From assembly GCA_002733735.2 (NCBI GenBank), contig NVWT02000006.1, positions 1-44,244 of the forward strand: a DNA stretch of 44,244 bases, given 5' to 3'. A model generated the notes under the pieces. It saw nothing but the letters and a program-made list of their open reading frames with translations. It was not told the origin of the DNA and made no database searches. This stretch comes from Robiginitomaculum sp. (lineage in GTDB: Bacteria; Pseudomonadota; Alphaproteobacteria; Caulobacterales; Maricaulaceae). A program made the translations under genes and the position numbers. Positions 4,035-44,244 of the stretch are shown here, piece by piece. Position 1 is the stretch's first letter. Each line of letters begins with the position of its first letter.

Positions 4035-4141
4035 AATATACGCTAATCTGTTGTAATTATTGGATATTAACGGACCATAGTGGCGCGCAAAGGGGTATAA
4101 AAGGGCCTATTTTGACCTATTTGCGCGCCAGTTGCGCGCCA
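4035..4141. repeat. motif cluster at the left arm of island A: AATATACGCTAA plus three copies of TTGCGCGCCA (one inverted)
   Basis: AATATACGCTAA is at 4035-4046. TGGCGCGCAA (the inverted copy) is at 4081-4090. TTGCGCGCCA is at 4121-4130 and 4132-4141. The same motifs recur at 26513-26558. Confidence 0.6.
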
Positions 4142-8050: not shown

Positions 8051-8062
8051 GATAATAATCTT

Positions 8063-9337: not shown

Positions 9338-10902
9338 CGTGAAAAAGGGCTAGCAATACTTAGCTCTGCACAAAACCCGGCAATGGTTTTATCAGTTTCC
9401 TGCATGTCGCTTTCCAGCGCGTGCAGTTCTGCCGCGACGGCGTCGATATCAACCTGCTCTTCATCTTCAAACGTATCAACATAGCGCGGGATGTTGAGGT
9501 TATAATCGTTTTCGGCAATCTCAGACATCGGTGCCACGTAAGAATATTTGTCGATGGTTTCGCGGTTTGCGTAACTTTCGACAATCTTGGCCACATGTTC
9601 GTCGGTTAGCGCGTTTTGATTGCCGACTTTTATAAACCCCTCACTGGCATCTATGAAAAGGATATTATCATCATGCACCCGGCATTTTTTGAACACCAGA
9701 ATACAGGCCGGAATACTCGTGCCATAGAAAAGGTTTGCCGGCAGACCGATCACCGCATCAAGATAGTTTTGCTCTTTGATGATGTATTGACGGATTTTAC
9801 CCTCTGCCGCACCGCGAAACAGCACCCCGTGCGGCAGCACCACGGCCATAGTGCCGCTATCATTCAATTGGTAAATCATATGCTGAACAAAAGCAAAGTC
9901 GGCTTTGGAGGTCGGAGCCAAGGCTCCATACTGACTAAAGCGATCATCAGTCTCGTTTAACGGGTTGTCCTTGCCTTTCCACTTGGCGGAAAATGGCGGA
10001 TTAGCCACCACTGCATCAAAACGTTGTTCCAGATGTTGCGGATGCTCCAGCGTGTCTTCTTGTTTGATATCAAACCGGCTAAAATGCACATCGTGCAAAA
10101 TCATGTTCATCCGCGCCAGATTGTAGGTGGTGCGGTTCAGCTCTTGGCCAAAAAACTCGCCCACTTCCGCCTCTCTGGCAATACGCAACAATAGCGAACC
10201 CGACCCACACGCCGGATCATAGGCGTTTTTGATGCGTTTTTTATCCAGTGTCACAATTTTAGCCAGAATTTTAGAAACCTGTTGCGGGGTGTAAAATTCT
10301 CCGGCCTTTTTACCCGCCCCGGAAGCAAATTGCGCGATCAGATATTCATAGGCATCACCCAGCACATCAGAATCCGCATCCTCCAATGCGAAATCAATCT
10401 TGTTAAGGTGTGAAAGCACTTTGGCAATCAGGGTGTTACGCGCCTCGACCGAGCGACCCAGCTTGGTGCTGTTCAGATCAAGGTCTTCAAACAGCTGGTT
10501 GAAATCGTCCTCTGATTCCGTGCCCATCGTACTTTGCTCGATGGCGTTCAAAATGCCTTGCAAATCTTCGAGGATGAAATTGCTCTGGCCTTCCACATCG
10601 GCATTGCCGCGTTTTGTGATGGCGGCAAACAACTCTTCGGGGCGCAGGAAATAGCCCAGCTTGATCAGGGACTCTTCGCGGATCGCATCAATATCGTCTT
10701 GGTCAGTTACAGCCGGGTAGTTTTTAACAGTTTCGGTTTCCAGCAATTTGTTGGCAAACAGGTGCTGCTTCTCCGAAAGGTATTTATAGAAAATAAAGCC
10801 TAAGATGTAATCGCGAAACTCGTCCGCCGACATTTTCCCACGCAACTCATTGGCGATATTCCATAATTGTTGCTCAAGCTTCTTTTTTTGGGCTTCTGTC
10901 AT
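9334..10902 (-). CDS. hsdM: type I RM N6-adenine DNA methyltransferase (HsdM)
   Basis: It has the HsdM N-domain pattern (LWNIANELRGKMSADEFRDYILGFIFYKYLSE), SAM motif DPACGSGSLL and catalytic NPPF (VVANPPFSAKW). Confidence 0.92.
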   Translation of the reverse strand: MTEAQKKKLEQQLWNIANELRGKMSADEFRDYILGFIFYKYLSEKQHLFANKLLETETVKNYPAVTDQDDIDAIREESLIKLGYFLRPEELFAAITKRGNADVEGQSNFILEDLQGILNAIEQSTMGTESEDDFNQLFEDLDLNSTKLGRSVEARNTLIAKVLSHLNKIDFALEDADSDVLGDAYEYLIAQFASGAGKKAGEFYTPQQVSKILAKIVTLDKKRIKNAYDPACGSGSLLLRIAREAEVGEFFGQELNRTTYNLARMNMILHDVHFSRFDIKQEDTLEHPQHLEQRFDAVVANPPFSAKWKGKDNPLNETDDRFSQYGALAPTSKADFAFVQHMIYQLNDSGTMAVVLPHGVLFRGAAEGKIRQYIIKEQNYLDAVIGLPANLFYGTSIPACILVFKKCRVHDDNILFIDASEGFIKVGNQNALTDEHVAKIVESYANRETIDKYSYVAPMSEIAENDYNLNIPRYVDTFEDEEQVDIDAVAAELHALESDMQETDKTIAGFCAELSIASPFSR

Positions 10903-11057
10903 GCGATACTTTCAAATTATGATTCTCTAACCTTCAGACTATACCAAAAATTACGCACGGCCATAATAAATCGGGGTTGATAGTTTGCACCTAAACGGAT
11001 CATCCGACTCGACTCTTTGCCCCAAATTCGTATCGTTGAGGTCTAATCCCCTTCAAC

Positions 11058-12761
11058 ATGAAGCTGGCCATAGCCCTCTTACGTGTATCGACGGACAAAC
11101 AGTTTCATCATGGCGATTCGATAGATACCCAAAAGACGCGGGTGGACCATGCCGCTGAGCGCGATGGTGCTTCTATTATCAGCTATTTCACCGAACACTA
11201 TTCCGGGCGGAAAACCAACCGGGTGGTCATTGAGGACATGCTCGCCTTTTTGGACGAACATACGGGCGAAATTCAAGTGGTCTATATCGTCCAGATCGAC
11301 CGCTTTACGCGAGCCGGTAGTGAGATGTATCTCTACTTGAAGCGTCAATTGCACAAACGTGGTGTCGATCTACGCGATGCCATGGGGATCATCCAAAAAT
11401 CAATCAATACGTTGGAGCACGTTGGTTTTGAATACGATTGGTCGATTACCTCTCCCAGCCAGACGGCGGAGGTCATGCAGGCCGAATATGCCAATCAAGA
11501 GGTCAACCAGATTTTGACCCGAACCATTGGACAGCAAATCAAACTGGCCCAAGAGGGATATCAAACCAGAAGCGCCGAGATGGGCTTTCGGAACGTCAAA
11601 ATCACTCGGCAAAATGGGCGCAAAGCCACCATCATGGAGCCGTTGGAGCCGGAAGCCAGTTGGATACGCGCCTTATTTGAGTTGCGCGCCGCTGGAGCGC
11701 TTTCCGATGAAGCCATCTGCGATAAAATCAATGCGATGGGCTATAAAAGCCGGATTATGCACCGCCGGGATAAGAGCACAGGCGAGGTGATCGCCATCAC
11801 CGGGAACAAACCGCTCAGCCCCAAACAACTGCAACGGTTAGTCGCCAAGCCCATTTATTGCGGCGTTCGGGTAGGCAAGTGGACCCACAACCAACCGATC
11901 AAAGCCCCATTTGATGGGCTGGTATCCATGTCGCTCTTCAACCGTGCCAATCATGGGGCGGTGGTTCTCTCAGGCTCAAAAGGGGGTGATCTAAGCATTG
12001 AACATGGGCAATCTCGTAAACACGCAACGCACCTAAATAACCCAGACTTTTTATTGCGGCATGTGGTGATGTGCCCAAAATGTGCAAAACCTTTTTGGGC
12101 TTCCAAGTCACGCGGTAAGAGCGGCCAGTACTTTGGTTACTTCCACTGTGCCCGTGCGCACAAATCTGTCAGCATATCCCAATCAGAGTTCCAAAAGACT
12201 ATTGGCTGTTATCTGGACAAGCTGGAAGCCAAGCCGGGTTTCTTGGGTCTGTTCAAAGAAGTAGTGCGTGAAACTTGGATCGCCAAAAACAAGAGCCGCC
12301 AAGAGGAATTTGAAGCCATCGATAAACACATCAAAACACTGGAATTGCGTCAGCAAAATATTCTGGATCGCATAACCGTTTCTGGTTCAACCTTGGTCCA
12401 GAAAAAGCTTGAACAAGAGATTGAAGACCTTGAAGGCGCGATCAAATCCGCCAAAAAAGAACGCTCGGAAGCGGACCTTGGCGAAGAGCAAATTGAACAG
12501 TTTTTTCAACGGGCAAAAAACAGACTGGAACACCCCAAAGATTATGGACTAGCGGCCAGTACAAAAGGCGAAACCGTCAAAACTTGGCAGACAATTTTCG
12601 CTCACCCGCCGACCTTTGATGAATTGAAGTCTGGAACACCTCAATTGACGCTCCTATACCGGCTTAACCGCCACATTGGTTGTGACAAGAAACAGTTGGC
12701 TGCGCACCTGTCCGTAAACTGGAACACCTTTGTGCGGGAGGTGGAGCATCAAATTGAGTAA
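11058..12761 (+). CDS. large serine recombinase
   Basis: The 567-aa protein has an N-terminal resolvase catalytic domain (ALLRVSTDKQ with the catalytic Ser). This is followed by a recombinase domain, a Cys-rich zinc-ribbon region (CPKCAKPF...HCARAH) and a coiled-coil C-terminus. Confidence 0.85.
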   Translation: MKLAIALLRVSTDKQFHHGDSIDTQKTRVDHAAERDGASIISYFTEHYSGRKTNRVVIEDMLAFLDEHTGEIQVVYIVQIDRFTRAGSEMYLYLKRQLHKRGVDLRDAMGIIQKSINTLEHVGFEYDWSITSPSQTAEVMQAEYANQEVNQILTRTIGQQIKLAQEGYQTRSAEMGFRNVKITRQNGRKATIMEPLEPEASWIRALFELRAAGALSDEAICDKINAMGYKSRIMHRRDKSTGEVIAITGNKPLSPKQLQRLVAKPIYCGVRVGKWTHNQPIKAPFDGLVSMSLFNRANHGAVVLSGSKGGDLSIEHGQSRKHATHLNNPDFLLRHVVMCPKCAKPFWASKSRGKSGQYFGYFHCARAHKSVSISQSEFQKTIGCYLDKLEAKPGFLGLFKEVVRETWIAKNKSRQEEFEAIDKHIKTLELRQQNILDRITVSGSTLVQKKLEQEIEDLEGAIKSAKKERSEADLGEEQIEQFFQRAKNRLEHPKDYGLAASTKGETVKTWQTIFAHPPTFDELKSGTPQLTLLYRLNRHIGCDKKQLAAHLSVNWNTFVREVEHQIE

Positions 12762-12787
12762 GTTTCTCAAAAAAACAATGGCTGATT

Positions 12788-14497
12788 TTAAATTTTCTCC
12801 TGAAGACGATCAATATAATCAATTACGTTTTTTATTTTTCCCCAATTTAAAACTGATTCATGGATTTCATTCGTGTGCATGATAGCATTTCTAATGGGGC
12901 CAATTTCTTTAGTATCAAGATCAAGTCCACGTTGATTTTTTTTGGATTTACCCGCATTTTTAGTTCTGATTTTGCAGTCAATTACTTCGCCAAGGCCGAA
13001 TAGGTCTAGGTAATTAAGATAGTGCTCATTAGCAACAATATTGCCCTTAAGGGCATGTCTCTCTTCATCACTGTGACGTAACCCTTTTATTGACCGGATC
13101 GTGTGTAAAATGTCTTTTTCTTGTTCAGTTCCGCCTTCCAAATCAGACTCACTGATGTTTTTAAGTTTAATGTACTCTCGAAATATATTTTCTAAAATAA
13201 ATAAATCCTGATAAACAATGGTATTGTTATGGGATAGGCTTTTAAGCTTCTTTTTTAGAGATTTCTTAAGCTGCGGGTCTTTTATATCCTCGTCAATTTT
13301 ATCTTTAAAATCTTTCTCTCTTCTGTTTTTACTCTCTTCCATCCTGACGACGTAACCTGGCCTATTATCATGATTTATATCTCCTTCTTCTCTAATTTCC
13401 ACTCGCCAAGGAGTCCAATCTTGGATGACTATTTTTTGAATTTCTCTTAACTTTTCCAAAAAAGCTTGATACAGCGGATCATCTTTAATCACCCCTTCTC
13501 TAGAGCTTGTAAAACGGTCAATTTCTTCATCTTCAAAACCGTCCACATGCACTTCCCCATAAAGATACTCTTCGGTTAAAGCCTTAGTTGTTATTTCATC
13601 AAATAAATTTTCTTGGCGCAATCTTCCGTTACAGAATAAATTTATACTTGCCCTGAAATCACCCCCTGAACCTCGAAGCAGCAAATTGCTAGCGACTTTC
13701 ACTGAGGCTATGAAGCCCCTTACCTCTATCTTTTGTTCTTTAAACTCAAACGCTGTTTTTTTTATAGTTTTTTCTCTTTCAATCGCCGGATACCTAGATT
13801 TAATATTTTCGTCCTGATTATTTAGATACCAAATAAACTGGGTATTATCATTTAGCTCCTTGAGGTCCTCAATTGTAACTTCTTTATTGTTTACAAAAAT
13901 TTGGAATTTATCTCCTTTTTCAAGGCTAAACATAAAATTAAACTGAGTGGCCAGATATTTTCTAATAATATCTTCACTATTAATTCGCCCCTTAATGCCT
14001 TCAAAAATAATTCGCGTCCCTTTTGGCCGTGTGTTTATTGATTGGGCTTCTCGCTCTGGCAAAGCTTCAAGGCTATATTTTCCGTCTTTTTTAATTTCGC
14101 GATCCAGAACAGTATTGTTTACCACCCCGCCTACAGCCTCTACATCCTTTTTCTTAGATATTATGCTTACCTTTTGCGATATAGATAGCATAGCAAGTTT
14201 ACCGATCCCTTTTCTCCCTATAACGCTTCGTTTTGATGTATTATCTGGATCGTCTCGCCTTGAATAACCCACTTTTAAAAACCTACCCCTAAAGTCAGCC
14301 TCGTCCATTCCTTTTCCATCATCATCAATAACTAAGCGGTCTCTTTCAATCGTAATATCCACTCTCTCAGCTCCTGCATCCCAAGCATTTGAGACAGCTT
14401 CTGCAATCACTGTCGCAAAACTTCGATATAGCCCTCTACCTAGGTGGTTTAGTACCTCTAAGGAAAATTCAAATTTAAATGGCTCAGCTTTAGACAT
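12788..14497 (-). CDS. GHKL (MORC/MutL-like, HATPase_c_3-type) ATPase with a C-terminal HEPN-like domain
   Basis: Bergerat-fold motifs are EAVSNAWDAG (N box), DDDGKGM (G1) and GRKGIGKLA (G2). The C-terminal helical region ends in GPIRNAIMHT (R-N-x3-H, i.e. R-x4-H), preceded by YLNYLDLFGLGEVI as in Swt1-like HEPN domains. It has an 8-nt overlap with the upstream methyltransferase gene. Confidence 0.7.
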   Translation of the reverse strand: MSKAEPFKFEFSLEVLNHLGRGLYRSFATVIAEAVSNAWDAGAERVDITIERDRLVIDDDGKGMDEADFRGRFLKVGYSRRDDPDNTSKRSVIGRKGIGKLAMLSISQKVSIISKKKDVEAVGGVVNNTVLDREIKKDGKYSLEALPEREAQSINTRPKGTRIIFEGIKGRINSEDIIRKYLATQFNFMFSLEKGDKFQIFVNNKEVTIEDLKELNDNTQFIWYLNNQDENIKSRYPAIEREKTIKKTAFEFKEQKIEVRGFIASVKVASNLLLRGSGGDFRASINLFCNGRLRQENLFDEITTKALTEEYLYGEVHVDGFEDEEIDRFTSSREGVIKDDPLYQAFLEKLREIQKIVIQDWTPWRVEIREEGDINHDNRPGYVVRMEESKNRREKDFKDKIDEDIKDPQLKKSLKKKLKSLSHNNTIVYQDLFILENIFREYIKLKNISESDLEGGTEQEKDILHTIRSIKGLRHSDEERHALKGNIVANEHYLNYLDLFGLGEVIDCKIRTKNAGKSKKNQRGLDLDTKEIGPIRNAIMHTNEIHESVLNWGKIKNVIDYIDRLQEKI

Positions 14498-15524
14498 GGT
14501 TTTGTTGAAAATGCTCCTTAATTGTCTTGCCTATTACAAACCCCAATCGTGGCGGAACCGCATTGCCAATATGTTTTGCGGTGCGGGTCATTGATATTAT
14601 TTTCCCAAAATCATAGCCCTTGGGAAAAGTCTGGAGTAAGGCGCCCTCTCTCAATGAAAGAGCTCGATCTTGCTCAGGATGGCCGAAACGCCCAGAGCCA
14701 TAGTTGAAAAATTGGGTGGTCATAGTTGGCGAGACATTTTCCCAACTCATCCGCCCATAAACAGATACATAAGTTTTGCCACTTGCCTTTCGATAGCAAT
14801 TTGGAAGAAGTTCTTTATCCCAATCCTTCCAAGAACCACTGGGCTTCGATTGCCTAATTCTTTTCAGATTTAGTTCATTTAAGTTCTTTACACAGTGAAC
14901 GTGGTCTTTTTTATCTACTTCTCCAACTCTCAATGGCGGTAGCTTTCCGATAATATCTTGAACCGTTTTGTATTTATTTTTTGTATGTGTTGGGCTTGGG
15001 ACCTGAATTTTGCCAATTTTTGACCCCATTAGGACAAGACGACTCCGACTTTGCGGGATACCATAATCAGGGCAATATACAATTTTGAAATCTATTGAGT
15101 AGCCAAGCTTTTCTAGTTCTTGAATAAAATTGTCAAATATTCTTGTTTTCGTGATGCCGCGTACATTTTCCATAGATATCACATGCGGATCAAGCACCCG
15201 AACGGCTTCTATAAAGTAATCTATTAGATTCCAGCGAGTGTCTGATTCTCTATTTTTATTTTTGTTGGTGTGAGACGAAAAAGGCTGACAGGGTGCGCAC
15301 CCGACCAATACTCGCAAGCTATTTTTTGAATAAAGTTTTTTTAATTCCCGAAAATCATACTCAGCAATATCAGCCGATATAAATTTTGCACCGTTATTTT
15401 TTTCATATGTGAACGAACAGGTCTCGTCGTTATCAAGACCCGCCAGCACATCTATATTTGCCTCTCGTAGGCCGCAGGTTAGCCCCCCAATGCCGCAAAA
15501 TAAGTCTATGGCTTCAATTTTCAT
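14490..15524 (-). CDS. DNA (cytosine-5)-methyltransferase
   Basis: Motif I is DLFCGIGG. The motif IV catalytic Pro-Cys is GCAPCQPFS. Motif VI is ENV, motif VIII is QSRSRL and motif X is GNAVPP. Confidence 0.9.
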   Translation of the reverse strand: MKIEAIDLFCGIGGLTCGLREANIDVLAGLDNDETCSFTYEKNNGAKFISADIAEYDFRELKKLYSKNSLRVLVGCAPCQPFSSHTNKNKNRESDTRWNLIDYFIEAVRVLDPHVISMENVRGITKTRIFDNFIQELEKLGYSIDFKIVYCPDYGIPQSRSRLVLMGSKIGKIQVPSPTHTKNKYKTVQDIIGKLPPLRVGEVDKKDHVHCVKNLNELNLKRIRQSKPSGSWKDWDKELLPNCYRKASGKTYVSVYGRMSWENVSPTMTTQFFNYGSGRFGHPEQDRALSLREGALLQTFPKGYDFGKIISMTRTAKHIGNAVPPRLGFVIGKTIKEHFQQNHV

Positions 15525-15577
15525 AATCCTATTGTAATGCTTTTTTTTGTTTACAAAAGGGGGCGCGTCACATTTAT

Positions 15578-15775
15578 TTAGCGAGAGTTTTCCTCATACG
15601 CCAACTCAGCCACGTCGCGCATGAGTCGTAAGATTTCTTCAATGTCCCCGTCTGAATAATTCCTGCCGATCATGCCCAAGGCTTTGCGGGCTTGGGGCAG
15701 GGTCAAACGTGTGCCGGTTCTGGTTTTTTGTTTTTGCATAAAGCCATGATCGGTAGAGCATGGCTGGAGTAGCAA
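15578..15775 (-). CDS. small hypothetical protein (start may be the internal Met at 15739)
   Basis: The 53-65-aa ORF is co-oriented between the DUF3768 and methyltransferase genes. No motif was recognised. Confidence 0.3.
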   Translation of the reverse strand: MLLQPCSTDHGFMQKQKTRTGTRLTLPQARKALGMIGRNYSDGDIEEILRLMRDVAELAYEENSR

Positions 15776-15793
15776 GAGCTTTGCCGGGCTGGC

Positions 15794-16126
15794 TTAGTAT
15801 TCGTCGGCCCGCATAATGGTCAAAACCCGCCGAGTGACGTTTGGATCAGCCGTGTCGGGCGATAGGCCTTTGTAAGCCGTATCGTAGTAATCCACTTTGA
15901 AAAAGAAGTTCACCTCATCTATCGTTACCCGACCAAAATCATGTTCGTCATAGGGATCATTGTCTTCACTAAAATCAGAAAATTTCCGAATCGCTGACAA
16001 GACATTGGCGCGGACGCTATGGCTGAGGTTTTGCACCCCTAAAGTTAGCAGAATATCGCCCCCGATGCCTTCCGTTCTGAGGGTGTCATTGAGCCGGGCA
16101 ACCGTAGCCGAATTAGAATTTTCCAT
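15794..16126 (-). CDS. DUF3768-family protein
   Basis: The 110-aa protein reads RLNDTLRT...GGDILLTLGV...DNDPYDEHDFGRV...FFFKVDYYD. This is the pattern I associate with DUF3768 proteins of plasmids and islands. Confidence 0.7.
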   Translation of the reverse strand: MENSNSATVARLNDTLRTEGIGGDILLTLGVQNLSHSVRANVLSAIRKFSDFSEDNDPYDEHDFGRVTIDEVNFFFKVDYYDTAYKGLSPDTADPNVTRRVLTIMRADEY

Positions 16127-16132
16127 GGAGGA

Positions 16133-17275
16133 TCATATTACATAATCCCCCATTTCGGCGTCAAAATTTGCCGTCGATGTTGGCTTTTCATCAGACCCAT
16201 TTGTGTCAATTTGGCGTAACAGCTTATCCAACGCCGCCACGGATTTTTCCATGTGATCTGGGCTGTAAGGGGCATAGCGTTCCGTCATACTAAACTCGCG
16301 CGATTTGTGGCCAAGTTGAGCGGATACATCCCACGCGGGCACACCCTCTTTGCGCATCCAGCGGGCCGCTGTGTGGCGTAAGCTATATGGATTGACCTGC
16401 ATATCCAATTCGACCTTGGCCCGGGTTCTACGCCAAGCAGTTCGTATCGTTGATACCTCTTTTCCGCGATAGCTGATAACCGGGCCCGTTTTTGGATAAT
16501 CCCCATTGTTCCAATAGCGCTCTTTAAGCGCTGGCGGGAGTTTCACCGTCGGGCGATGTTTCTTGTTTTGCTTTCGCCCCAGCGGGTTTAGCAAGATCAA
16601 ATTATTCTCAAAATCAACCTGCTCCCAAGTCATATCGGTAATGGCTTCCGGGCGTGCTGCCGTGCCCAACATCCAATAGATAAAATCCACCAAATGCGTT
16701 GAAGTCGCTCCTTCGGTCAGTTTGCGAATTTCAGAAGGCTCCAAAGGACGACCTTTGGGGTCGGCACTCCCCTTTTCTAGCATGGCAATATGCGGACAAC
16801 TTTTAATTTCTCCGCGTTTCCAAGATCGATTGATCGCGGCGCGACCCACGGACAAATTGCGATTGATGGTGGTGTTGACCTGCCCTCTAGCGCGTAGCCA
16901 ATGATGAAAACCCTCTTGCAAAGGAATGGAGGCCAGATCGCCCACACTGATATCACCAAAAAAATCGAGCCAGTACCGGATAGCCAGACGGATGCGCTGT
17001 TCGGTTCGGATATGCTTCCCGTGATGCTCATAATAGGCGCTAAGGACACTGGCCAAGGAAACTTCGGCTGGTTCGGCTTGTTCCGGGCGTTGATGGTTGA
17101 TGAACCAAGCGGTTAAGCGCTCTTTGGCTTGCTCATAGTCCGAAGTACCGAGTGAAGCGCGGTGGGTCCGTCTATTTTGTTTGTCGAGCCAAGTGCGGTA
17201 GTAGGCCGGTGATCCGCTTCGCTGGCTAAGCCAGTAGTCTCCAAGTTGAAATTTGCGTTTTGTGTAACGTGACAT
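16133..17275 (-). CDS. tyrosine-type site-specific integrase
   Basis: I place the start at the ATG at 17275 (MSRYTKRKFQLGDYWL...) rather than at 17455. Catalytic signatures are TAARPEAI (Arg), YSLRHTAARW (H-x-x-R) and LGHKS...TERYAPY (His...Tyr). Confidence 0.85.
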   Translation of the reverse strand: MSRYTKRKFQLGDYWLSQRSGSPAYYRTWLDKQNRRTHRASLGTSDYEQAKERLTAWFINHQRPEQAEPAEVSLASVLSAYYEHHGKHIRTEQRIRLAIRYWLDFFGDISVGDLASIPLQEGFHHWLRARGQVNTTINRNLSVGRAAINRSWKRGEIKSCPHIAMLEKGSADPKGRPLEPSEIRKLTEGATSTHLVDFIYWMLGTAARPEAITDMTWEQVDFENNLILLNPLGRKQNKKHRPTVKLPPALKERYWNNGDYPKTGPVISYRGKEVSTIRTAWRRTRAKVELDMQVNPYSLRHTAARWMRKEGVPAWDVSAQLGHKSREFSMTERYAPYSPDHMEKSVAALDKLLRQIDTNGSDEKPTSTANFDAEMGDYVI

Positions 17276-17622
17276 GATTGTATTTGCGTGATGAGATAGG
17301 TGGCAATTTGATACCCGAAATAAGCAACGCGCCTTTGCCCTAGCCTCACAAATGGGAGTTTCCCTTTTAATCGAAGTTTTTTGAGCGTGGCCGGGTGAAG
17401 CCCGATAATTTTGGCCGCTTGCGCTTCGCTGTAGTGCCGGTAAAGCTGAAAACATTGATCCATAGCGATGGCTTGCAACAGGTTTTCGGGAGAAATATCG
17501 CCTTTCATAAGGGGTAAAGTTAATGCCCCTTGATAGTACTTGCTTTTTCTAAAAGCGTCACCGAATCTATCTTGAAGATACGGGCTTTCATGGTTTTGTG
17601 ATGCAAACTCACACAAAGTCAT
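17113..17622 (-). CDS. excisionase/AlpA-like HTH DNA-binding protein, with its 3' end overlapping the integrase start in another frame
   Basis: The HTH segment is YSEAQAAKIIGLHPATLKKLRLKGKLPFVRLGQRRVAYF. The start was chosen at Met 17622. The last roughly 54 codons overlap the integrase and look non-protein-like, so the true 3' end is uncertain. Confidence 0.5.
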   Translation of the reverse strand: MTLCEFASQNHESPYLQDRFGDAFRKSKYYQGALTLPLMKGDISPENLLQAIAMDQCFQLYRHYSEAQAAKIIGLHPATLKKLRLKGKLPFVRLGQRRVAYFGYQIATYLITQIQSCHVTQNANFNLETTGLASEADHRPTTALGSTNKIDGPTALHSVLRTMSKPKSA

Positions 17623-23527: not shown

Positions 23528-25291
23528 ATGGAAATTTATGATTCATTTCATCAGGTACTCAATGATTGGCTGCAAGAGCCCCTCACTCCCAAGACAAATG
23601 GCGACATAAAAATTGGTGAAATGCAGCTCAAAGAAAACCCGGCTTTAGTGCTGGAATTGAGTGAGAAATTGGAAAGAGTGGAGGGGTGGTTGACGTTCAC
23701 CGCTTTCCAGAAATTGTTTCAGAGCAAACTCCAGAAACCCATTCCCCCACAAGAAACTGATCCGATATTTGACCCTTCAAATATCAAATACGAATCTCCT
23801 AACCAACGCCAAATAGCCGTTAGCTACCGGTACAAAAAAGCCCTACAAGAATATGAAAAACGATACGCTCGCTATACGCAAATTTCGGAGGAATCACGCA
23901 CTATTGTTTCGAATTATCGAGCTGACATTGGCGGGTATCTGGAATTTGTTGAGACTACCCTTTCATCTGCTGCACCAGTTAATTCAGGCTCGTTTTTTTT
24001 TGAACCTTGGCCAGTAAATATTCATGAAGCCGCTCGCAAAAGGCATACCTTTCTTACCGGCGGAACTGGTTCTGGAAAAAGCGAAGCCTTGAAACTTTTG
24101 ATCCGACATTACGAAACCAAACAGACCGATACCGCCTTGGTCATTCTGGACCCACATGGAAAGTTGGCCCACGATGTGGCCTTGTTTGCGGAGCATCAGC
24201 ACAATGACCGTCTGGTTTATATTGACCCCAATTTATCTTCCCAGCATACCCCGGTACTGAATGCCTTTGAGGTGTCAGATAAAAGCGTTTCCAGTCTGGA
24301 AACCCAGAGTGCCCAGTTGATGGCGGCAATGGAGCAGGTGCTGGCCGGTTTCACGCTCAATATGGAAAGTCTGCTCTTGCCCTGCCTAACTGTTTTGCTC
24401 CACCGTGATGGTTCTGATTTGTCCGATCTGGTTCGGTTTATGGACAAGGGCCGCAATCGCGATCTGGTAAATTATGGTATCCAGCATCTACCGTTTGATG
24501 AGCACCGGATATTTTTTGAAACTCAATTTTTCTCCCAGCATTTCGATAGTACGAAAGAGGCACTTAGAAACCGGTTCCAATCACTCATTAATATCCCCAC
24601 CATCAAACAATTTACCTGCGGTTCATCCACCTTTGATCTGGAAAGCCTCATCGATCAAAAGAAAATTATTGTTTTCAATCTTTCTATCTCCGGGGCCGCA
24701 AAAAATTCAACCCGGGTGATCGGTCAATTTATTACGGCACTCGTGCAAAGCTACGCCATGCGCCGAGAGCAAAACCAAAATAATCCTAAAACGCCCATTC
24801 ATTTTTTTGCTGATGAATGCCAGTATTTTGTGTCTCGAACGACCGATGATATTTTGGGCGAAAGCCGTAAGTACGGCCTATTTCTCACCTTGGCGACCCA
24901 GCGAACCGAGCAAGTTGGCGGTCGAACGCTAGACGCTATTCTGGGAAATGCGGGTTTATTTTTAGTCGGAAAAAACCGGGGCAAAACGGTTTCAAAAATG
25001 AGTAAAGAACTGGATATCGAACCAAATGATATTCGCTCGCTTCCTACCGGCAGCTTTTATTTGAGCCAATCCGGGCGAACTTGCATTCGGACCAAATTGC
25101 CACTTGTCGGGCAAAAATATGCGATGAAAGCCAAAGATTGGGAAAAGGTCAGGCAGGAGCAACTTGACCGCTATTATCGCCAGACCAATAAAGTTACCCG
25201 CCAACATTCTTCTGGAAAAGCTGCCTCTACAAACGCGCCAAAACCCAAATTGTCGTTTCCTGAAATGCCACCGATAAAGCCAAAAACATGA
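23528..25291 (+). CDS. TraD/VirD4/FtsK-HerA-like P-loop ATPase (coupling-protein-like)
   Basis: Walker A is FLTGGTGSGKSEAL. It also has VILDPHG, a Walker B-like IHFFADECQYF, and TLATQRTEQV. No N-terminal TM segments are seen. Confidence 0.6.
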   Translation: MEIYDSFHQVLNDWLQEPLTPKTNGDIKIGEMQLKENPALVLELSEKLERVEGWLTFTAFQKLFQSKLQKPIPPQETDPIFDPSNIKYESPNQRQIAVSYRYKKALQEYEKRYARYTQISEESRTIVSNYRADIGGYLEFVETTLSSAAPVNSGSFFFEPWPVNIHEAARKRHTFLTGGTGSGKSEALKLLIRHYETKQTDTALVILDPHGKLAHDVALFAEHQHNDRLVYIDPNLSSQHTPVLNAFEVSDKSVSSLETQSAQLMAAMEQVLAGFTLNMESLLLPCLTVLLHRDGSDLSDLVRFMDKGRNRDLVNYGIQHLPFDEHRIFFETQFFSQHFDSTKEALRNRFQSLINIPTIKQFTCGSSTFDLESLIDQKKIIVFNLSISGAAKNSTRVIGQFITALVQSYAMRREQNQNNPKTPIHFFADECQYFVSRTTDDILGESRKYGLFLTLATQRTEQVGGRTLDAILGNAGLFLVGKNRGKTVSKMSKELDIEPNDIRSLPTGSFYLSQSGRTCIRTKLPLVGQKYAMKAKDWEKVRQEQLDRYYRQTNKVTRQHSSGKAASTNAPKPKLSFPEMPPIKPKT

Positions 25292-37939: not shown

Positions 37940-38040
<101 letters not shown>

Positions 38041-38139: not shown

Positions 38140-39231
38140 TTGCTTGATAATATATGGACTGAATACCTAAAAGAACGGCTGGCCGAAGAGCTGGCTGTTC
38201 ACAAACCACCACAACAAAACCACCAATCATTACCGGAACGCTGGATAGCTATGAGCTTGATGCAAAAAGCCATAAGGCGGAGCGATTCTAACGAGGCATT
38301 GCGTGCAGGATTATATTTGCTGAATGTCGACTACCGGATACTTTGGCGGAGATTATGTGTAATTGCATGGGAAGATATAAGCTTTGGTGATTTTGATCTG
38401 TGCGGTATGATCACAGCCGCCTCAGGATCAAAGAGATGGAGAGCTAAAGTCGGCGGGGAGTGGAAGGTAGCTTCTTATCTCATCAGCCAGCTATGTGCCG
38501 CCCAAAAGAACAGGGTGACAGATGATATTGTAACCCTCGTAAACCACGATGCATCACTTGAGGTTATACGGAGAGAATTGGCAATCGCCTCTGTAGAGAG
38601 TTTGCAATCAATTGCAAATTCACATTCCGGCCTCCTCCTCCAACGTGTCATAGCTACATGGTATGCATTGGGAACGCAGAAGTTTGGCTCCGATGTTCTG
38701 CATAGACGTAAAGGCGACGTAGATCACTTCTTTACTTGTTTTGATACAGACCAATGCCCTGAGCATGTTCTAGCCATCTGTAGAGTGGCTCTATCGCGAT
38801 CAGGAACCATATTACCTGCCTTTATCCCGCTTCTATGGAATGATTGGATGAAGGTAACGGAACCATTACCCTCTAATACGGATAATGGCCTACAAAGCTA
38901 TTCTATAAATTCTATTCCTAGATACGCATTTGATGGTCACACTAGGGCGGGGCGACGGTATCTATATTGGCTGGCTGATCAATCCAATGATCTTCAACAG
39001 TTCTTACAAGATGTAGTACCTAAGGCTGACAAAAACGCTTTACTGCGCGAGCTTTGCTTTAAAACCATATCCGCACTCTGTGTTGATCGCCAAGCTTGGA
39101 GCGTCACTGATAGCGTTAGACTAAAGGCTGACCAAGTCGGCTACGGTCTTACAGCGGCTTCAATCAGTCAGGGCATGCAAATACTACGAGTGTCAATGAA
39201 TACATACCCCATGACGGAGAAGCATCTATGA
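38140..39231 (+). CDS. protein resembling the C-terminal (MgsA_C) domain of RarA/MgsA, without an AAA+ module
   Basis: The TTG start has SD GGGAGG 5 nt upstream. SLMQKAIRRSDSNEALRAGLYLL...RRLCVIAWEDISFGDFDL parallels the RarA segment ISAFHKSVRGSxPDAALYW...RRLxxIASEDVGxADP. No Walker motifs were seen. Confidence 0.55.
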   Translation: MLDNIWTEYLKERLAEELAVHKPPQQNHQSLPERWIAMSLMQKAIRRSDSNEALRAGLYLLNVDYRILWRRLCVIAWEDISFGDFDLCGMITAASGSKRWRAKVGGEWKVASYLISQLCAAQKNRVTDDIVTLVNHDASLEVIRRELAIASVESLQSIANSHSGLLLQRVIATWYALGTQKFGSDVLHRRKGDVDHFFTCFDTDQCPEHVLAICRVALSRSGTILPAFIPLLWNDWMKVTEPLPSNTDNGLQSYSINSIPRYAFDGHTRAGRRYLYWLADQSNDLQQFLQDVVPKADKNALLRELCFKTISALCVDRQAWSVTDSVRLKADQVGYGLTAASISQGMQILRVSMNTYPMTEKHL

Positions 39232-39289
39232 GCCGCTCCGTAACACACAAACCAACCTTTACCTGTTACAGAAGCTTTTGGGGAGCAGA

Positions 39290-39934
39290 ATGAAGCCCTC
39301 CGAAGCCATGCCAGCCGCATATCTACGGGTAAGCACCCAAAGGCAAGGAATATCAGGTCTAGGACTAGAGGCGCAGCGTAAGGCCATTGAGTTATTACTG
39401 GACGGCAAGCCCTACCGCGAGTTCATCGAGATAGAGAGCGGCAAGAAGGCCAAACGGCCAGAGCTTGAAGCCGCCATTGCCTATTGCCGCAAACACAAAA
39501 CCAAACTGGTCATAGCCAAGCTTGACCGCCTCGCCCGTAATGTTCACTTCATATCTGGCCTCATGGAAACAGGCATAGACTTCATTGCCGCCGACATGCC
39601 CAACGCAGACAGATTCATGCTCCACGTCTATGCTGCTATGGCTGAGGAAGAAGGACGGCGGATTAGTGAACGTACTAAAGCGGCTCTTGCGGTGGCAAAA
39701 GCACGAGGCGTTGAACTTGGAAAAAACGGCAAGGTATTGGCGGCTAAGAACAAGGCAGAAGCGGACGTGTTTGCAAGGGGGGTTAGCTCGAACTTTGAAA
39801 GGTTGGGGATTTCACAAGATATGAGTTTACAATCGATTGCCAATTTACTGAATATTGATGGTGTTACTACCCGACAAGGCGAAATTTGGTATAGAGCTAC
39901 CATCAGTCGATTACTGAGTCGTATAGAACGATAA
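39290..39934 (+). CDS. small serine recombinase (resolvase/invertase catalytic domain)
   Basis: I prefer the ATG at 39290 (SD GGGGAG upstream) over the TTG at 39278. AAYLRVSTQRQ contains the catalytic Ser, followed by LVIAKLDRLARN. The C-terminus is LNIDGVTTRQGEIWYRATISRLL. Confidence 0.85.
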   Translation: MKPSEAMPAAYLRVSTQRQGISGLGLEAQRKAIELLLDGKPYREFIEIESGKKAKRPELEAAIAYCRKHKTKLVIAKLDRLARNVHFISGLMETGIDFIAADMPNADRFMLHVYAAMAEEEGRRISERTKAALAVAKARGVELGKNGKVLAAKNKAEADVFARGVSSNFERLGISQDMSLQSIANLLNIDGVTTRQGEIWYRATISRLLSRIER

Positions 39935-40141
39935 AGGTTTGGCCTCCTTCATATGAAGTGGAATAAATTTCTTTTTGAAGGCTCTACTATGATGATTTAC
40001 TCCATGCTTTCTAAAGAGTGGAAGTTCGATTTTATCAAAATTTCCACTCTGCCAATATAATTTCGTTGTTGATAGATTGAGGGTTGTGGGTTTATCATAG
40101 CCTCACTCTCGGCAAAGAAGAAATAAAGGAACATTGCTTCT

Positions 40142-40918
40142 ATGAGCATGACTGATATTGAATGGACTGATGCAACATGGAACCCAGTCGCTGGTTGTTC
40201 CATTGTATCAGCTGGTTGTACAAATTGCTATGCAATGAACATGGCTATGCGCCTTGAAGCAATGGGAGTTGAAAAATACACTGGGCTAACGAGAAAGTCT
40301 GGAAATAGAACCATTTGGACAGGTAAAGTCAGAGAAGACCAAAAATCTTTGCAGATACCTTACGGTTGGAAAAAACCTAAGAAAATATTTGTTAATTCAA
40401 TGAGTGATTTATTCCATAAAGGAGTTAGTGTTGAGTTTATACAGTCAGTATGGGACGTTATGGCAGGAACTCCGCATCATAATTATCAGATATTGACAAA
40501 ACAACCCGAACGAATGCGGGATGTTTTGATCAAACATATAGGTGAAATTTTGCCAAACGTTTGGCTTGGAACAAGTGTGGAAAACGCAAATGTTGTCGGC
40601 CGTTTAGAATTCATTCGGGATACGCCAGCCGCAATACGTTTTGTTTCTTTTGAACCGCTAATTGGTTCGGTTGGTAATGTAAATTTAGATAAAATCCACT
40701 GGGCGATCGTTGGCGGGGAAAGTGGCCCGAAGGCACGTCCGACAAGTGAAGCTTGGATAGATGAAATACATGAGCAATGCTTAACTTACGATACTGCTTT
40801 CTTTTTTAAACAGTGGGGAACATGGGGAAAAGACAACAAGAGAAGATCAAAAAAAGCAAATGGCAGAGTGTATCGAGGGCGAATATGGGATGAAATGCCA
40901 GGAACCGCACATGCGTAA
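40142..40918 (+). CDS. DUF5131 / phage Gp37-Gp68 family protein (three-Cys motif)
   Basis: The N-terminal hallmark is IEWTDATWNPVAGCSIVSAGCTNCYA (C-x6-C-x2-C). Later motifs are IFVNSMSDLFH, FEPL and GGESGP. Confidence 0.8.
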   Translation: MSMTDIEWTDATWNPVAGCSIVSAGCTNCYAMNMAMRLEAMGVEKYTGLTRKSGNRTIWTGKVREDQKSLQIPYGWKKPKKIFVNSMSDLFHKGVSVEFIQSVWDVMAGTPHHNYQILTKQPERMRDVLIKHIGEILPNVWLGTSVENANVVGRLEFIRDTPAAIRFVSFEPLIGSVGNVNLDKIHWAIVGGESGPKARPTSEAWIDEIHEQCLTYDTAFFFKQWGTWGKDNKRRSKKANGRVYRGRIWDEMPGTAHA

Positions 40919-40940
40919 AGATTTCATAGGTAAATAGTGT

Positions 40941-42179
40941 ATGGTTAAAAAAAGCTACAATTGGGAAGATGGCGCAATCCTAGACGAGCATTCCAAAGTC
41001 AAACTAAAAATTCTCGACGAATATTTTTGTGAGTATTTGCGCGTACGGTGTGTTTTACCACAACAAGAAAAATTCAGATTAGTGGTTGTGGACGGTTTCT
41101 GTGGTGCAGGCTTGTATAGCTGCGGTGCGTTCGGTTCGCCCCTGATTTTAATGTCTGCATTACAAAGAACAGAGCAGGAATTGAACCTTTGCCGTGCTGC
41201 GGATGGTTTTAAACCTATACGCATAGAGTGTCATTTTGAGTTTAATGATACCGATGAAAATGCCGTAGCTTTATTACAGAAAAACATTGCTCCACTGATT
41301 GCAAATATTAAAGAAAACTCTCCAAATTTATTGATCAACTGTACATTCACGGTTGGTGAGTTTGAGGTGCAACAAAATCAAATTTGCAACCGTATTGTTA
41401 GCTCGAAAGTTCGAAATGTTTTGTTTAACTTAGATCAATACGGCTATTCAAATGTTTCAGAGGCCACAATAAAAAAGCTGATTTCTATCACACACTCTTC
41501 TGAGATATTTTTAACATTTGCGATTGCCTCTTTTCTTGCCTTCTTATCTCCAGAGCGTTTGCGCCAAAACTTTTCATTAAATAACGTTCCGTTTACTGGT
41601 CAATTATCAGATATCACAGCCCAACTTAGCAAACCAAATTGGCTGGGAGCTGTGGAAAGTACGGTCTTTGAAGCATTATGTAATACGGCTAAATATGTTA
41701 GCCCTTTTTCCATTCATAATCCTAGCGGTTGGCGATATTGGTTAATTCATATTGCCAATTCATACCGCGGACGTCAGGTATATAATAATGTATTGCATAA
41801 AAACAAAAGTTCCCAAGCTCATTTTGGAAGATCAGGCTTGAATATGTTGAAGTATAGCCCTGACGAAGAAACATCTCTTTATCTTTTTAAACCTGAAGAT
41901 CGCCAAACGGCAACAAACCAATTATTGAATGACATCCCTAGATTTGTTGATAAACAAAACGAGCGCCACATAAAGGTTGGAGCTTTTTACGAGCTGACTT
42001 ACAATGGAACACCTGCACATAGTGACGATATTCATACCGCTATCATAGACAATCCGGATTTAGAGGTACTAACACCAAATGGTGGAACGAGAAGAAAACC
42101 TAATATGATAAAACCGGTGGATGTTTTGCGGCTACGACCGCAAAGGACTTTATTTTCACAAGCAAATTTTGATGTCTAG
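40941..42179 (+). CDS. tcmP: three-Cys-motif partner protein (TcmP-like), Rossmann/methyltransferase-like N-terminal half
   Basis: The N-terminus is WEDGAILDEHSKVKLKILDEYF followed by VVVDGFCGAGLY (SAM-MTase motif-I-like). It sits immediately downstream of a DUF5131 gene, the defining context of TcmP. Confidence 0.65.
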   Translation: MVKKSYNWEDGAILDEHSKVKLKILDEYFCEYLRVRCVLPQQEKFRLVVVDGFCGAGLYSCGAFGSPLILMSALQRTEQELNLCRAADGFKPIRIECHFEFNDTDENAVALLQKNIAPLIANIKENSPNLLINCTFTVGEFEVQQNQICNRIVSSKVRNVLFNLDQYGYSNVSEATIKKLISITHSSEIFLTFAIASFLAFLSPERLRQNFSLNNVPFTGQLSDITAQLSKPNWLGAVESTVFEALCNTAKYVSPFSIHNPSGWRYWLIHIANSYRGRQVYNNVLHKNKSSQAHFGRSGLNMLKYSPDEETSLYLFKPEDRQTATNQLLNDIPRFVDKQNERHIKVGAFYELTYNGTPAHSDDIHTAIIDNPDLEVLTPNGGTRRKPNMIKPVDVLRLRPQRTLFSQANFDV

Positions 42180-42203
42180 CAACAGGCATATCAAGGAAAC
42201 ACG

Positions 42204-43664
42204 ATGAAGAAACTTGAGTGGTCACAACTATTAAATTCTACGCGGCGAAAAGATTTGGATAATAGCGCTAGTTCCATATCAGCGAATGTAGGAGGGTCAA
42301 GAACAGAAATTGAGCGAGACTATGACCGCATATTATTTAGTACACCAGTACGGCGTTTAGCAGACAAGACCCAAGTGTTCCCTTTAGAAAAGAACGATAG
42401 TGTTCGCAATCGTTTAACCCATTCTCACGAAGTTTCAAACCTTGCACGGAGCGTTGGTGTCGCTTTAATGTATGGAAAAAATGACTTACCCAAGGACGAC
42501 CAACAGAAGCGTGACATTCCCTCAATGCTTGCGGCAATTGGCTTGGCACATGATATCGGTAACCCACCGTTTGGGCATCAAGGTGAAAAAGCCATTGGTT
42601 CTTGGTTCAAGGATAAGAAAATAGAGGTGCTTGATTTCAAAGATTCAGAAGAAGAAGTAAGCTCACGTATTATTGAACGCATGGAAAAGGACTTTTTGGA
42701 GTTTGAGGGGAATGCCCAAGCATTTAGAATTTTGACAAAACTCCAACTTTTAAACGATCAGTACGGGCTGAATTTAACATTAGGTTCGCTTGCGGCTCTT
42801 ATGAAATACCCTACTACATCGGAGAAAACAGATACGAGCAAAGTGTCACTTAAAAAATTTGGGTGTTTCCACTCAGAACTTGATTGTTGTAAACAAGTCT
42901 GGAAGTACACTGGGCTTGAACTTGGTGTTCGTCACCCACTAGCATACATAATGGAGGCGTGTGATGATATTGCTTATTCGGTACTAGATGTAGAGGATGC
43001 AATAAAAAAGGGGTTAATCTCCTACAGGGATCTGATAAATTATCTGGGAAAGTCAACGACCGAAAACGAACTTGGCGAAGGTGACCTCCTGAAGAGGGTT
43101 ATCAAAAAGTCTGAAGAAAAGCATGAAGAACACCGACAGGAGAACCTTTCACCTTCGGAAATCAACGATATTTCCATGCAAATGTTTCGTGTTTATGCAA
43201 TTCACGAAATGATTACGTCAATAACGGAAACATTTACGAGTGAATACAATGATATAATGAGTGGTGAATTTAAGGGAGATTTAATAGGTAATTCTAAAGC
43301 CAGAATTATTTGCAAAAGGCTAAAAGACTTTGCATTCAAAAACGCCTACCAAACAAGAAGTGTTTTAGAGTTGGAATTAGAAGGCTACATAATTATTCGC
43401 TCACTGATGGACATGATGTGGCCAGCAATCAAGATGAGGGGTGATCCAATAACTCAAAAGAAGCATATTGGAAATCCATTTGAACGATATGTTTATGGGC
43501 GAATTTCTGAAAACTATAGAAGGATTTTTGAGGATAAAGACAATACGCTCCCCTTGAATTATAAAAGGTGCCAATTATTAGCTGACATGGTATCTGGCAT
43601 GACGGACAGTTTTGCGATAGACTTTGAAGCAGAATTAGCAAAATTACGAATATCGGCTAACTAA
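42204..43664 (+). CDS. dGTPase-family dNTP triphosphohydrolase (HD domain)
   Basis: Motifs are RTEIERDYDRILFSTPVRRLADKTQVF, RLTHSHEVSNLARSVG and GLAHDIGNPPFGHQGE. The C-terminal segment is DMVSGMTDSFAI. Confidence 0.88.
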   Translation: MKKLEWSQLLNSTRRKDLDNSASSISANVGGSRTEIERDYDRILFSTPVRRLADKTQVFPLEKNDSVRNRLTHSHEVSNLARSVGVALMYGKNDLPKDDQQKRDIPSMLAAIGLAHDIGNPPFGHQGEKAIGSWFKDKKIEVLDFKDSEEEVSSRIIERMEKDFLEFEGNAQAFRILTKLQLLNDQYGLNLTLGSLAALMKYPTTSEKTDTSKVSLKKFGCFHSELDCCKQVWKYTGLELGVRHPLAYIMEACDDIAYSVLDVEDAIKKGLISYRDLINYLGKSTTENELGEGDLLKRVIKKSEEKHEEHRQENLSPSEINDISMQMFRVYAIHEMITSITETFTSEYNDIMSGEFKGDLIGNSKARIICKRLKDFAFKNAYQTRSVLELELEGYIIIRSLMDMMWPAIKMRGDPITQKKHIGNPFERYVYGRISENYRRIFEDKDNTLPLNYKRCQLLADMVSGMTDSFAIDFEAELAKLRISAN

Positions 43665-43673
43665 GGAAAAGTA

Positions 43674-44244
43674 GTGCGTGTTGCAAAAGACATTAAGGTT
43701 TTAAAAAAACGGGTCAGACGGTTTTTTGAATATGTTCCAGAAGAACGCCGCACGGTGAGCAAAGTTTTACGGGACTTAGAGAATGTTGCGGATGTCTATG
43801 TCTTTGGTGGATTGATGCGTGATTTAGCCTTGTATGGCATTGATGACTTTAATAGCGATATAGACCTTGTAGTGAAACCTAACGATTTGGTGGAATTTAA
43901 ACGCATATTGGGGACTTATGGTTTCTCTCAAAATAAGTTTGGGGGGTATCGGCTGCAATCACAGAGGTGGCTGTTTGACATCTGGGAATTTAAAAATACA
44001 TGGGCATTTCGGGAAAACCATATTTCACCTCACAGTAAGCGCTCGCTCATTGAAACCACCTTTTTTAACTGGGATGCAATTTTATATGATTGTAAATCCA
44101 ACCAAATAATTTGTGATGACAATTACTTGCACGCAATAGCCCATCGCAACTTAGATATTAATCTTCGGAAAAACCCAAATAAAATAAATTCACTTATAAG
44201 GGCTTTAAAGTTTATTGTAAAAGATGGAGCTCACACCGGTACTG
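43674..44244 (+). CDS. pol-beta-superfamily nucleotidyltransferase (PolyA_pol/CCA-adding head-domain-like), 3'-truncated by the window edge
   Basis: This ORF is not in the supplied track because it has no stop in the window. I translated it by hand from the GTG at 43674 (SD AAGGA 6 nt upstream), and it is open to base 44244. The motif VYVFGGLMRDLALYGIDDFNSDIDLVV matches the GG-x-x-RD...D-x-D NTase signature. Confidence 0.65.
   Translation, partial: MRVAKDIKVLKKRVRRFFEYVPEERRTVSKVLRDLENVADVYVFGGLMRDLALYGIDDFNSDIDLVVKPNDLVEFKRILGTYGFSQNKFGGYRLQSQRWLFDIWEFKNTWAFRENHISPHSKRSLIETTFFNWDAILYDCKSNQIICDDNYLHAIAHRNLDINLRKNPNKINSLIRALKFIVKDGAHTGT

Follow-up and report, generated by a model that had tools for sequence, protein, structure and literature searches.

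The window analysed here, the whole 44,244-nt stretch (positions 1 to 44,244) of contig NVWT02000006.1 from Robiginitomaculum sp., ends in a compact operon of four co-directional genes whose two distal members, judged by their sequences, are cloA and cloB, the genes of the anti-phage system Clover. The two proximal genes encode a DUF5131 protein, a putative member of the radical S-adenosylmethionine (SAM) superfamily, and TcmP, the three-Cys-motif partner protein. An earlier note, made from the letters of the window alone, knew of no described system with this composition; genes 3 and 4 are in fact Clover (PMC12265719) and genes 1 and 2 are listed in PADLOC as the defence candidate PDC-M30/M41, but the conserved four-gene architecture that unites them is new. 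The operon is probably a composite, in which a canonical Clover module is co-transcribed with an autonomous DUF5131-TcmP module supplying a second layer. The four genes are:

40142..40918, + strand: gene 1, DUF5131, putative radical-SAM superfamily enzyme (phage Gp37/Gp68), 258 aa, PF07505
40941..42179, + strand: gene 2, TcmP, three-Cys-motif partner protein, 412 aa, TIGR04474
42204..43664, + strand: gene 3, CloA dGTPase effector, 486 aa, matched to the CloA cryo-electron microscopy chains
43674..44244 (window end), + strand: gene 4, CloB Pol-beta-fold nucleotidyltransferase, 190 of 267 codons inside the window

The spacers of 22, 24 and 9 nt between the co-directional genes, already given in the earlier note, were reproduced from the list of open reading frames (ORFs) and direct translation. 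The motifs quoted there were all found, namely WTDATWNPVAGC-x6-C-x2-CYA, VVVDGFCGAGLY, RLTHSHEV, AHDIGNPPFGHQGE and FGGLMRDLALYG...SDIDLVV, but the spacer in the last is five residues and not x6. The GTG start of gene 4 at 43674 is upheld by longer contigs. A gene-3 protein identical to that of the window is encoded on eight public contigs, and contig L001 equals the window at 4103/4103 bases over 40142-44244 (window position = L001 position + 32203). The full-length gene 4 was taken from L001:11471-12274; it encodes 267 aa and overruns the window by 233 nt, with its stop at the would-be position 44477. On contigs reaching further downstream, gene 4 is followed by a gap of some 450 nt and then by an ABC-ATPase gene in convergent orientation, and the operon therefore consists of exactly four genes. 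The suggestion that it might go on past the window holds for gene 4 itself and for nothing beyond it.

Clover genes in the distal half of the operon

Clover is an anti-phage system made of the CloA dGTPase and the CloB nucleotidyltransferase (Yamaguchi et al., bioRxiv 2025, Kranzusch laboratory; PMC12265719). According to that study, CloA alone is inactive and dTTP, which rises when T5-like phages remodel the nucleotide pool, turns its dGTPase on; dGTP is depleted and phage DNA replication is blocked. CloB makes p3diT (pppTpT), which restrains CloA from an adjacent pocket, and CloA is toxic to the cell when CloB is inactivated. The CloA assembly is an octameric "four-leaf clover", and validated Clover requires CloA and CloB only. 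Phage protection, cloB-dependent suppression of toxicity and p3diT synthesis were shown only for Clover from Salmonella, E. coli H5 and Xanthomonas (all PMC12265719). The preprint gives the CloA coordinates as 8P9S-8P9V; the matching PDB entries are 9P8S-9P8V, beside 9P8W for the stand-alone dGTPase SpdGTPase.

Gene 3 aligned with the Salmonella CloA cryo-electron microscopy chains (9P8S/T/U/V) at 54% identity (488 bits, E 3e-145) and with E. coli H5 CloA at 50% identity (E 1e-158), while E. coli Dgt (4X9E) and SpdGTPase (9P8W) scored 182 and 95 bits. The dGTP_triPase model TIGR01353 was matched well above its cutoff (336 vs 152 bits). Both housekeeping Dgt equivalogs remained under theirs (NF002205, 387.5 vs 439 bits; NF003429, 330.4 vs 405 bits), as did the stand-alone antiphage dGTPase model NF041026 (199.9 bits, cutoff 400). 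A housekeeping Dgt was ruled out for gene 3 by these NCBIfam cutoffs and by the PDB scores (488 vs 182 bits), which speaks against the earlier note's own caveat that the dGTPase might be the organism's sole housekeeping dgt. Its comparison of the enzyme to single-gene effectors does not survive either, given 95 bits for SpdGTPase against 488 for CloA. Stand-alone anti-phage dGTPases, reportedly described by Tal et al. in 2022, share with gene 3 the HD dNTP-triphosphohydrolase fold, the catalytic residues and the depletion of dGTP; SpdGTPase, however, is a single-gene, constitutively active hexamer, whereas gene 3 has the CloA-specific allosteric pockets. PADLOC-DB v2.0.0 (2023) is older than Clover and names gene 3 only "dGTPase". 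It had been expected that PADLOC would call the dGTPase at most, which is right for genes 3-4 but not for genes 1-2, where PDC-M30/M41 are matched.

All six catalytic residues of CloA, comprising the metal ligands and the H126/E129 dyad, are kept in gene 3 (H69, H117, D118, D242, H126 and E129 correspond to H73, H116, D117, D254, H125 and E128) and are invariant across 56 CloA sequences. The dGTP site retains 10/10 mapped contacts. Nine of the ten residues of the p3diT pocket are kept (R29, R34, D37, R38, F41, N75, N181, Q311 and R314), T25 being replaced by V, and the three arginines required for p3diT inhibition according to published mutants (PMC12265719) are retained. The dTTP pocket (R47, D61, Q172, K256, S418, N420, A444, T449 and Y452) keeps 7/9 residues, with A444 changed to M and Y452 to F; A444 is a main-chain contact, and the phenylalanine preserves the aromatic stacking residue at a position where the mutant Y452A is inactive (PMC12265719). 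This conservation holds in 12/12 CloAs examined from loci with the same four genes. The only substitutions specific to the clade that these loci form (see below) are T25 to A or V (V here, A in other members) and the octamer contact H263 to R, a stacking residue that is variable across the CloA family. The regulatory pockets are unchanged in the clade, and the Clover half therefore looks mechanistically canonical. A scan of viral contigs with Salmonella CloA found nothing.

For gene 4, the reference was the validated CloB of E. coli H5, whose sequence was obtained by locating the operon in the H5 chromosome. The two proteins share 32% identity over 239 aa (E 4e-42), and D62/D64 of gene 4 fall on the catalytic D71/D73. 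Residues G45, G46, R49, D50, D62, D64 and D102 are invariant in 35 homologues. The family is rare, with 59 protein clusters among 5.8 billion, and CloB is 253-273 aa long in the four-gene clade, shorter than in most two-gene Clover loci (about 255-317 aa). Pfam gave only a sub-threshold NTP_transf_2 match (17 bits, cutoff 21) and no match to PolyA_pol PF01743. The resemblance to CCA-adding enzymes and poly(A) polymerases that had been pointed out earlier covers, in profile searches against the PDB, about 44 residues around GGxxRD...DxD (best E 2.8e-4). Such an enzyme was ruled out for gene 4, as the similarity is confined to the head motif and PF01743 is lacking. The protein had also been likened to the signalling or toxin components of defence systems; it is no free-standing component but CloB, the maker of p3diT in Clover.

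Genes 3 and 4 thus encode the same two proteins as Clover, in the same order and with a 9-nt gap, and gene 3 retains the HD motif, the HE dyad, the dGTP site, the dTTP activator pocket and the p3diT inhibitor pocket. By keyword, the main text of PMC12265719 presents Clover as two-gene operons only, whereas in the clade of the window cloAB makes up the last two genes of four, behind DUF5131 and tcmP. We infer from orthology and from the conserved ligand-contacting residues that the mechanism shown in the Salmonella and E. coli orthologues would also operate at this locus.

Nicastro et al. in 2023 are said to have given the first bioinformatic report of a dNTPase-nucleotidyltransferase pair. In our census, which used one genome per species, a gene-3 homologue lies immediately upstream in 64/65 loci with a gene-4 relative, and loci of Proteobacteria, Negativicutes, Alicyclobacillaceae and Sedimentisphaerales share the cloA-cloB order. 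The other neighbours are hypervariable, and the dGTPase-nucleotidyltransferase pair is therefore a conserved unit. DUF5131-TcmP is found upstream in only 9/49 Clover loci that have enough upstream sequence; these fractions are approximate, retrieval having relied on one CloB peptide pattern. The E. coli H5 operon sits inside a tRNA-Sec integrase island (L075:343-8935), with a QueC-like 7-cyano-7-deazaguanine synthase, a PfkB kinase, an 8-oxoguanine glycosylase-like gene and a Dam-like methylase as neighbours, which suggests a guanine-modification module beside a dGTP-depleting system at that locus.

The DUF5131-TcmP pair

Gene 1 matched PF07505 (DUF5131) with an E of 4.5e-98 in the Pfam search, as well as the PADLOC models PDC-M41B (2.7e-99) and PDC-M30B (3.2e-94). 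The three cysteines of its cluster motif (C19, C26 and C29) are invariant in 40 homologues, with the spacing CX6CX2C in place of the canonical radical-SAM CX3CX2C. RadicalSAM.org places DUF5131 as radical-SAM Megacluster-5-2 (PMC9477430). The family comprises at least 8000 protein clusters and corresponds to the phage family phrog_2045. Against the NCBIfam model "radical SAM mobile pair protein A", gene 1 scored 63 bits, far under the 355-bit cutoff.

The DUF5131 profile had no match among PDB sequences, even at E 10. An AlphaFold2 model of gene 1 (predicted local distance difference test, pLDDT, 82.6) most resembled, among PDB folds, spore photoproduct lyase (4FHF), though weakly, with an E of 7.6e-3, a TMq of 0.48 and about 10% identity, and next MiaB, also weakly. 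Spore photoproduct lyase is like DUF5131 in that it gives the best fold, belongs to a neighbouring cluster in Megacluster-5 and is a small radical-SAM barrel, as DUF5131 is predicted to be. The two differ in the cysteine spacing (CX3CX2C vs CX6CX2C) and in the obligate partner of DUF5131, which has a methyltransferase-like fold and a winged helix-turn-helix.

That partner, gene 2, matched TIGR04474 (TcmP) with 197.8 bits in NCBIfam (cutoff 53) and PDC-M30A of PADLOC with 2.5e-28. Its N-terminal part has a class I SAM-methyltransferase-like fold in the AlphaFold2 model (pLDDT 80.8). The top Foldseek matches in the PDB are class I methyltransferases (E about 5e-5, template-modelling (TM) score 0.27-0.5), and a Foldseek comparison with viral structures returned generic methyltransferases only. 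Motif I, DGFxGxG, is invariant in TcmP; no methyltransferase family was among the Pfam matches of gene 2. The C-terminal winged helix-turn-helix corresponds to PF22560 GMT-wHTH (residues 304-381). The TcmP family holds at least 1631 protein clusters.

Of 80 metagenomic loci picked by their TcmP gene, 67/68 with room to see it have DUF5131 directly upstream of tcmP, and Clover lies downstream in only 1/49 with enough downstream sequence; retrieval used two peptide patterns and the fractions are approximate. The remaining flanks differ from locus to locus, and no constant third partner was found, the largest neighbour clusters occurring in at most 6 of about 90 loci. The genes that recur beside the pair belong to defence systems or mobile elements: Gabija GajA/GajB, DarT/DarG, a type IIG restriction-methylase, a T5orf172 protein and an Mrr-type nuclease. 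We found no functional study of the pair in the literature, only annotation-level mentions including the RadicalSAM.org listing. Genes 1-2 of the window, adjacent and co-directional with a 22-nt gap, match both PDC-M30 and PDC-M41. These PADLOC entries describe a two-gene candidate, whereas the pair of the window is joined to Clover, and within the TcmP family the proteins from the four-gene clade branch off deeply on their own.

Several variants of the pair were observed. In three Clover-less loci, an Mrr_cat restriction-endonuclease-domain gene overlaps the tcmP stop by 4 nt (L103:5115-6068, L104 and L113), a hint of possible coupling between the pair and a nuclease in the manner of restriction-modification. 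A second TcmP-like paralogue, transcribed divergently, lies upstream of DUF5131 in L117, L118, L142 and L145 (PDC-M30A 2e-10; L145:4781-6112, minus strand), and in L117 and L118 an uncharacterised protein of about 320 aa is encoded downstream of tcmP; loci with the second paralogue may represent a distinct four-gene subtype of the pair. Finally, DUF5131-TcmP (TcmP 54% identical) ends a phage-like contig (L158:1457-7248), where genes for thymidylate synthase, DUF3310 and DHHA1 lie upstream of it. Phage genomes therefore carry the pair too.

The four-gene cassette and its mobile setting

We found 14 full-length four-gene loci, along with several contigs that are cut short. Neighbour-joining trees of TcmP, CloA and CloB, computed with no bootstrap, each group 12 of the four-gene loci in a single clade, and the branching inside it is broadly alike among the three. 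To judge from this single clade, DUF5131-TcmP and Clover were joined once. Across the 14 loci, the pairwise identities of the four proteins correlate with r 0.93-0.985, a range that rests on pairwise values that are not independent. Gene order is kept in the 10 loci measured, with intergenic gaps of -37 to 38 nt overall and tcmP-cloA gaps of -4 to 38 nt, and the linkage persists down to about 50% TcmP and 37-48% CloB identity. The earlier note held that fortuitous adjacency would speak against a single system; the four genes are, on the contrary, co-conserved as a unit by all three measures (14 loci, a monophyletic group of 12, r 0.93-0.985). The neighbourhood census that it proposed gives a mixed picture: the pairs are separable (9/49 and 1/49), but the four-gene form is real and conserved.

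The four genes are transferred as one unit. The cassette occurs on a conjugative Phaeobacter plasmid and in a region of Croceicoccus naphthovorans that resembles an integrative and conjugative element (ICE), together with MobA, TraD and AlpA genes. The closest relative (L159/L160, TcmP 91% identical) lies in an integrase island with a resolvase directly upstream, and L018 has a resolvase downstream of the cassette. The suspicion of mobile, defence-type cargo is borne out by these relatives on a plasmid, in an ICE-like region and in integrase or resolvase islands. In the window, the operon is set among housekeeping genes and is preceded by a 363-aa ORF and a small serine recombinase. The features upstream of it are:

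38140-39231: 363-aa ORF, no Pfam, NCBIfam or PADLOC match
38603..38619, no strand: 17-nt site TGCAATCAATTGCAAAT, a 6-2-6 palindrome TGCAAT-CA-ATTGCA, inside the 363-aa ORF
39278..39934, + strand: small serine recombinase (resolvase), PF00239 E 2.8e-27, immediately upstream of the operon
40032..40098, + strand: two promoter matches of the sigma-70 type, each 10/12, at 44-110 nt upstream of gene 1

The resolvase at 39278..39934 is likely the mobility function of the cassette. An identical direct copy of TGCAATCAATTGCAAAT follows cloB at 467 nt outside the window (L001:12508-12524), and an 82% copy lies at 39828-39844, at the 3' end of the resolvase gene. By our own estimate, an exact 17-mer pair would arise by chance in 7.4 kb with a probability of about 0.002. 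These copies are candidate serine-recombinase crossover sites around the resolvase and the cassette. The 363-aa ORF may belong to the mobile element, and a 31%-identical homologue lies upstream of the four-gene cassette in L013.

The two promoter matches (L001 7829-7858 and 7866-7895) are the sole ones placed to drive the operon from outside genes. Promoter and terminator scans across the operon gave fewer sites than shuffled sequence did, and the matches at 40032..40098 are suggestive only. A perfect (AACT)25 microsatellite occupies 37941-38040, within a divergent intergenic region and some 100 nt upstream of the 363-aa ORF. Its copy number differs by assembly (25 in the window, 20 in L002 and (AACT)5-AAT-(AACT)21 in L001), several contigs break there, and the tract looks like a hypermutable, possibly phase-variable switch. 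The tract, which the earlier note saw as possibly controlling the four genes, is 2.1 kb upstream of the operon, beyond two other genes, and the promoter-like sites lie directly upstream of gene 1.

Other defence and mobile genes of the window are found at 4146-17455, 23528-25291 and 29186-30637. These stretches hold a type I restriction-modification operon (hsdR-rhuM-hsdS-hsdM), a large serine recombinase, an HATPase_c_3 protein beside a C5 cytosine methylase, a tyrosine integrase, a type IV coupling-protein-like ATPase and a reverse-transcriptase-like ORF.

Readings of the four-gene operon

The reading that we consider probable is that of two self-sufficient two-gene modules, fused once and inherited together since, in a horizontally mobile defence operon. 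A single promoter upstream of gene 1 would co-transcribe all four genes, so that both layers would be expressed and transferred together. In the Clover layer, phage nucleotide-metabolism enzymes would raise dTTP and turn CloA on, dGTP would be depleted and phage DNA replication blocked, while the p3diT (pppTpT) made continuously by CloB would raise the dTTP threshold of CloA and protect uninfected cells. DUF5131 and TcmP, to judge from their folds and genomic context, would most likely carry out a SAM-dependent, nucleic-acid-directed modification and form a defence or self-marking layer of their own. The two modules might also interact directly at the biochemical level, but the data do not require it. 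The earlier idea that the four genes are one system is therefore retained as regards the co-conserved unit, but each pair is autonomous in most genomes.

Several points weigh against this reading. The linkage, held through the clade with not a single split or swap, goes beyond the usual co-location in defence islands and hints at functional coupling. Co-transcription is argued from gene spacing, the promoter and terminator scans being no better than chance. Every functional statement on this locus is drawn from orthology or fold. The DUF5131-TcmP pair stands in PADLOC as a candidate only and its fold matches are weak (E 7.6e-3 for DUF5131, TM 0.27-0.5 for TcmP). Moreover, the CloA of gene 3 differs at T25 (V), Y452 (F), Q427 (D or S) and H263 (R), and its ligand affinity or oligomer state may therefore differ.

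One alternative is that all four genes make up a single integrated system and that DUF5131-TcmP acts on Clover signalling by modifying or destroying p3diT or thymidine nucleotides, by marking host DNA so that only the invader suffers from dGTP depletion, or by serving as a second sensor that releases CloA. We regard this as rather unlikely. It would account for the monophyletic clade with its co-diverging genes and absence of module swapping, for tcmP-cloA gaps (-4 to 38 nt in 10 loci) that leave no space for an intergenic promoter, and for a cassette that travels as a four-gene unit among plasmid, ICE-like and chromosomal settings; in addition, the substrate of spore photoproduct lyase, whose fold is nearest to that of DUF5131, is a TpT lesion, and the Clover signals are dTTP and pppTpT. 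That fold match is weak, however, and each pair works or at least persists alone in the large majority of loci. Validated Clover needs CloA and CloB only, CloA of the four-gene clade retains essentially unaltered dTTP and p3diT pockets, and a single fusion event gives no sign of convergent recruitment. The more specific proposal that DUF5131 and TcmP are functional parts of an extended Clover, acting on thymidine nucleotides or pppTpT or placing a DNA mark by which the host would tolerate or direct dGTP depletion, is in our opinion improbable.

Linkage might also reflect the history of an element and not a joint function, if DUF5131-TcmP were a DNA-modifying pair of a selfish or mobile kind, akin to phage anti-restriction hypermodification or to the modifying half of restriction-modification systems, with Clover as a trapped passenger. 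The resolvases that flank the cassette, the Mrr-type nuclease gene overlapping the tcmP stop in three loci, the membership of DUF5131 in phrog_2045, the pair on a phage-like contig beside thymidylate synthase (L158) and the weak tie of gene 1 to "radical SAM mobile pair protein A" (63 vs 355 bits) would all suit such a pair. Trapped cargo, however, should be exchanged, and here the same cargo is present throughout the clade with both halves diverging in parallel; Clover-less pairs show no conserved cargo slot, and transposase-like activity is predicted for neither protein. We therefore hold the selfish pair to be very unlikely. Ordinary metabolism, with a housekeeping Dgt and a CCA-adding or poly(A)-polymerase-like enzyme beside two prophage remnants, is effectively refuted. 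The generic dGTPase models that give the best NCBIfam names, the RefSeq labels "dgt" and "hypothetical protein" of the relatives and a GGxxRD...DxD head motif like that of class II tRNA nucleotidyltransferases would have fitted it, but gene 3 is under every housekeeping equivalog cutoff and scores 488 bits with CloA against 182 with E. coli Dgt, the tRNA-nucleotidyltransferase similarity spans about 44 residues with no PolyA_pol Pfam match, and the distribution is sporadic, in variable mobile settings.

For annotation, genes 3-4 are better named cloA/cloB than "dgt + hypothetical". DUF5131-TcmP is among the larger uncharacterised gene pairs of mobile elements and defence islands, and its stable linkage to Clover in one lineage provides an experimental handle. 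If the modules do cooperate, a radical-SAM enzyme would be plugged into nucleotide-signal immunity, and an extended Clover, if true, would give the DUF5131/TcmP family its first biochemical function and Clover a third regulatory input. Even without cooperation, the operon would still be a clean case of two defence modules carried as one compact unit on plasmids, ICE-like elements and resolvase cassettes.

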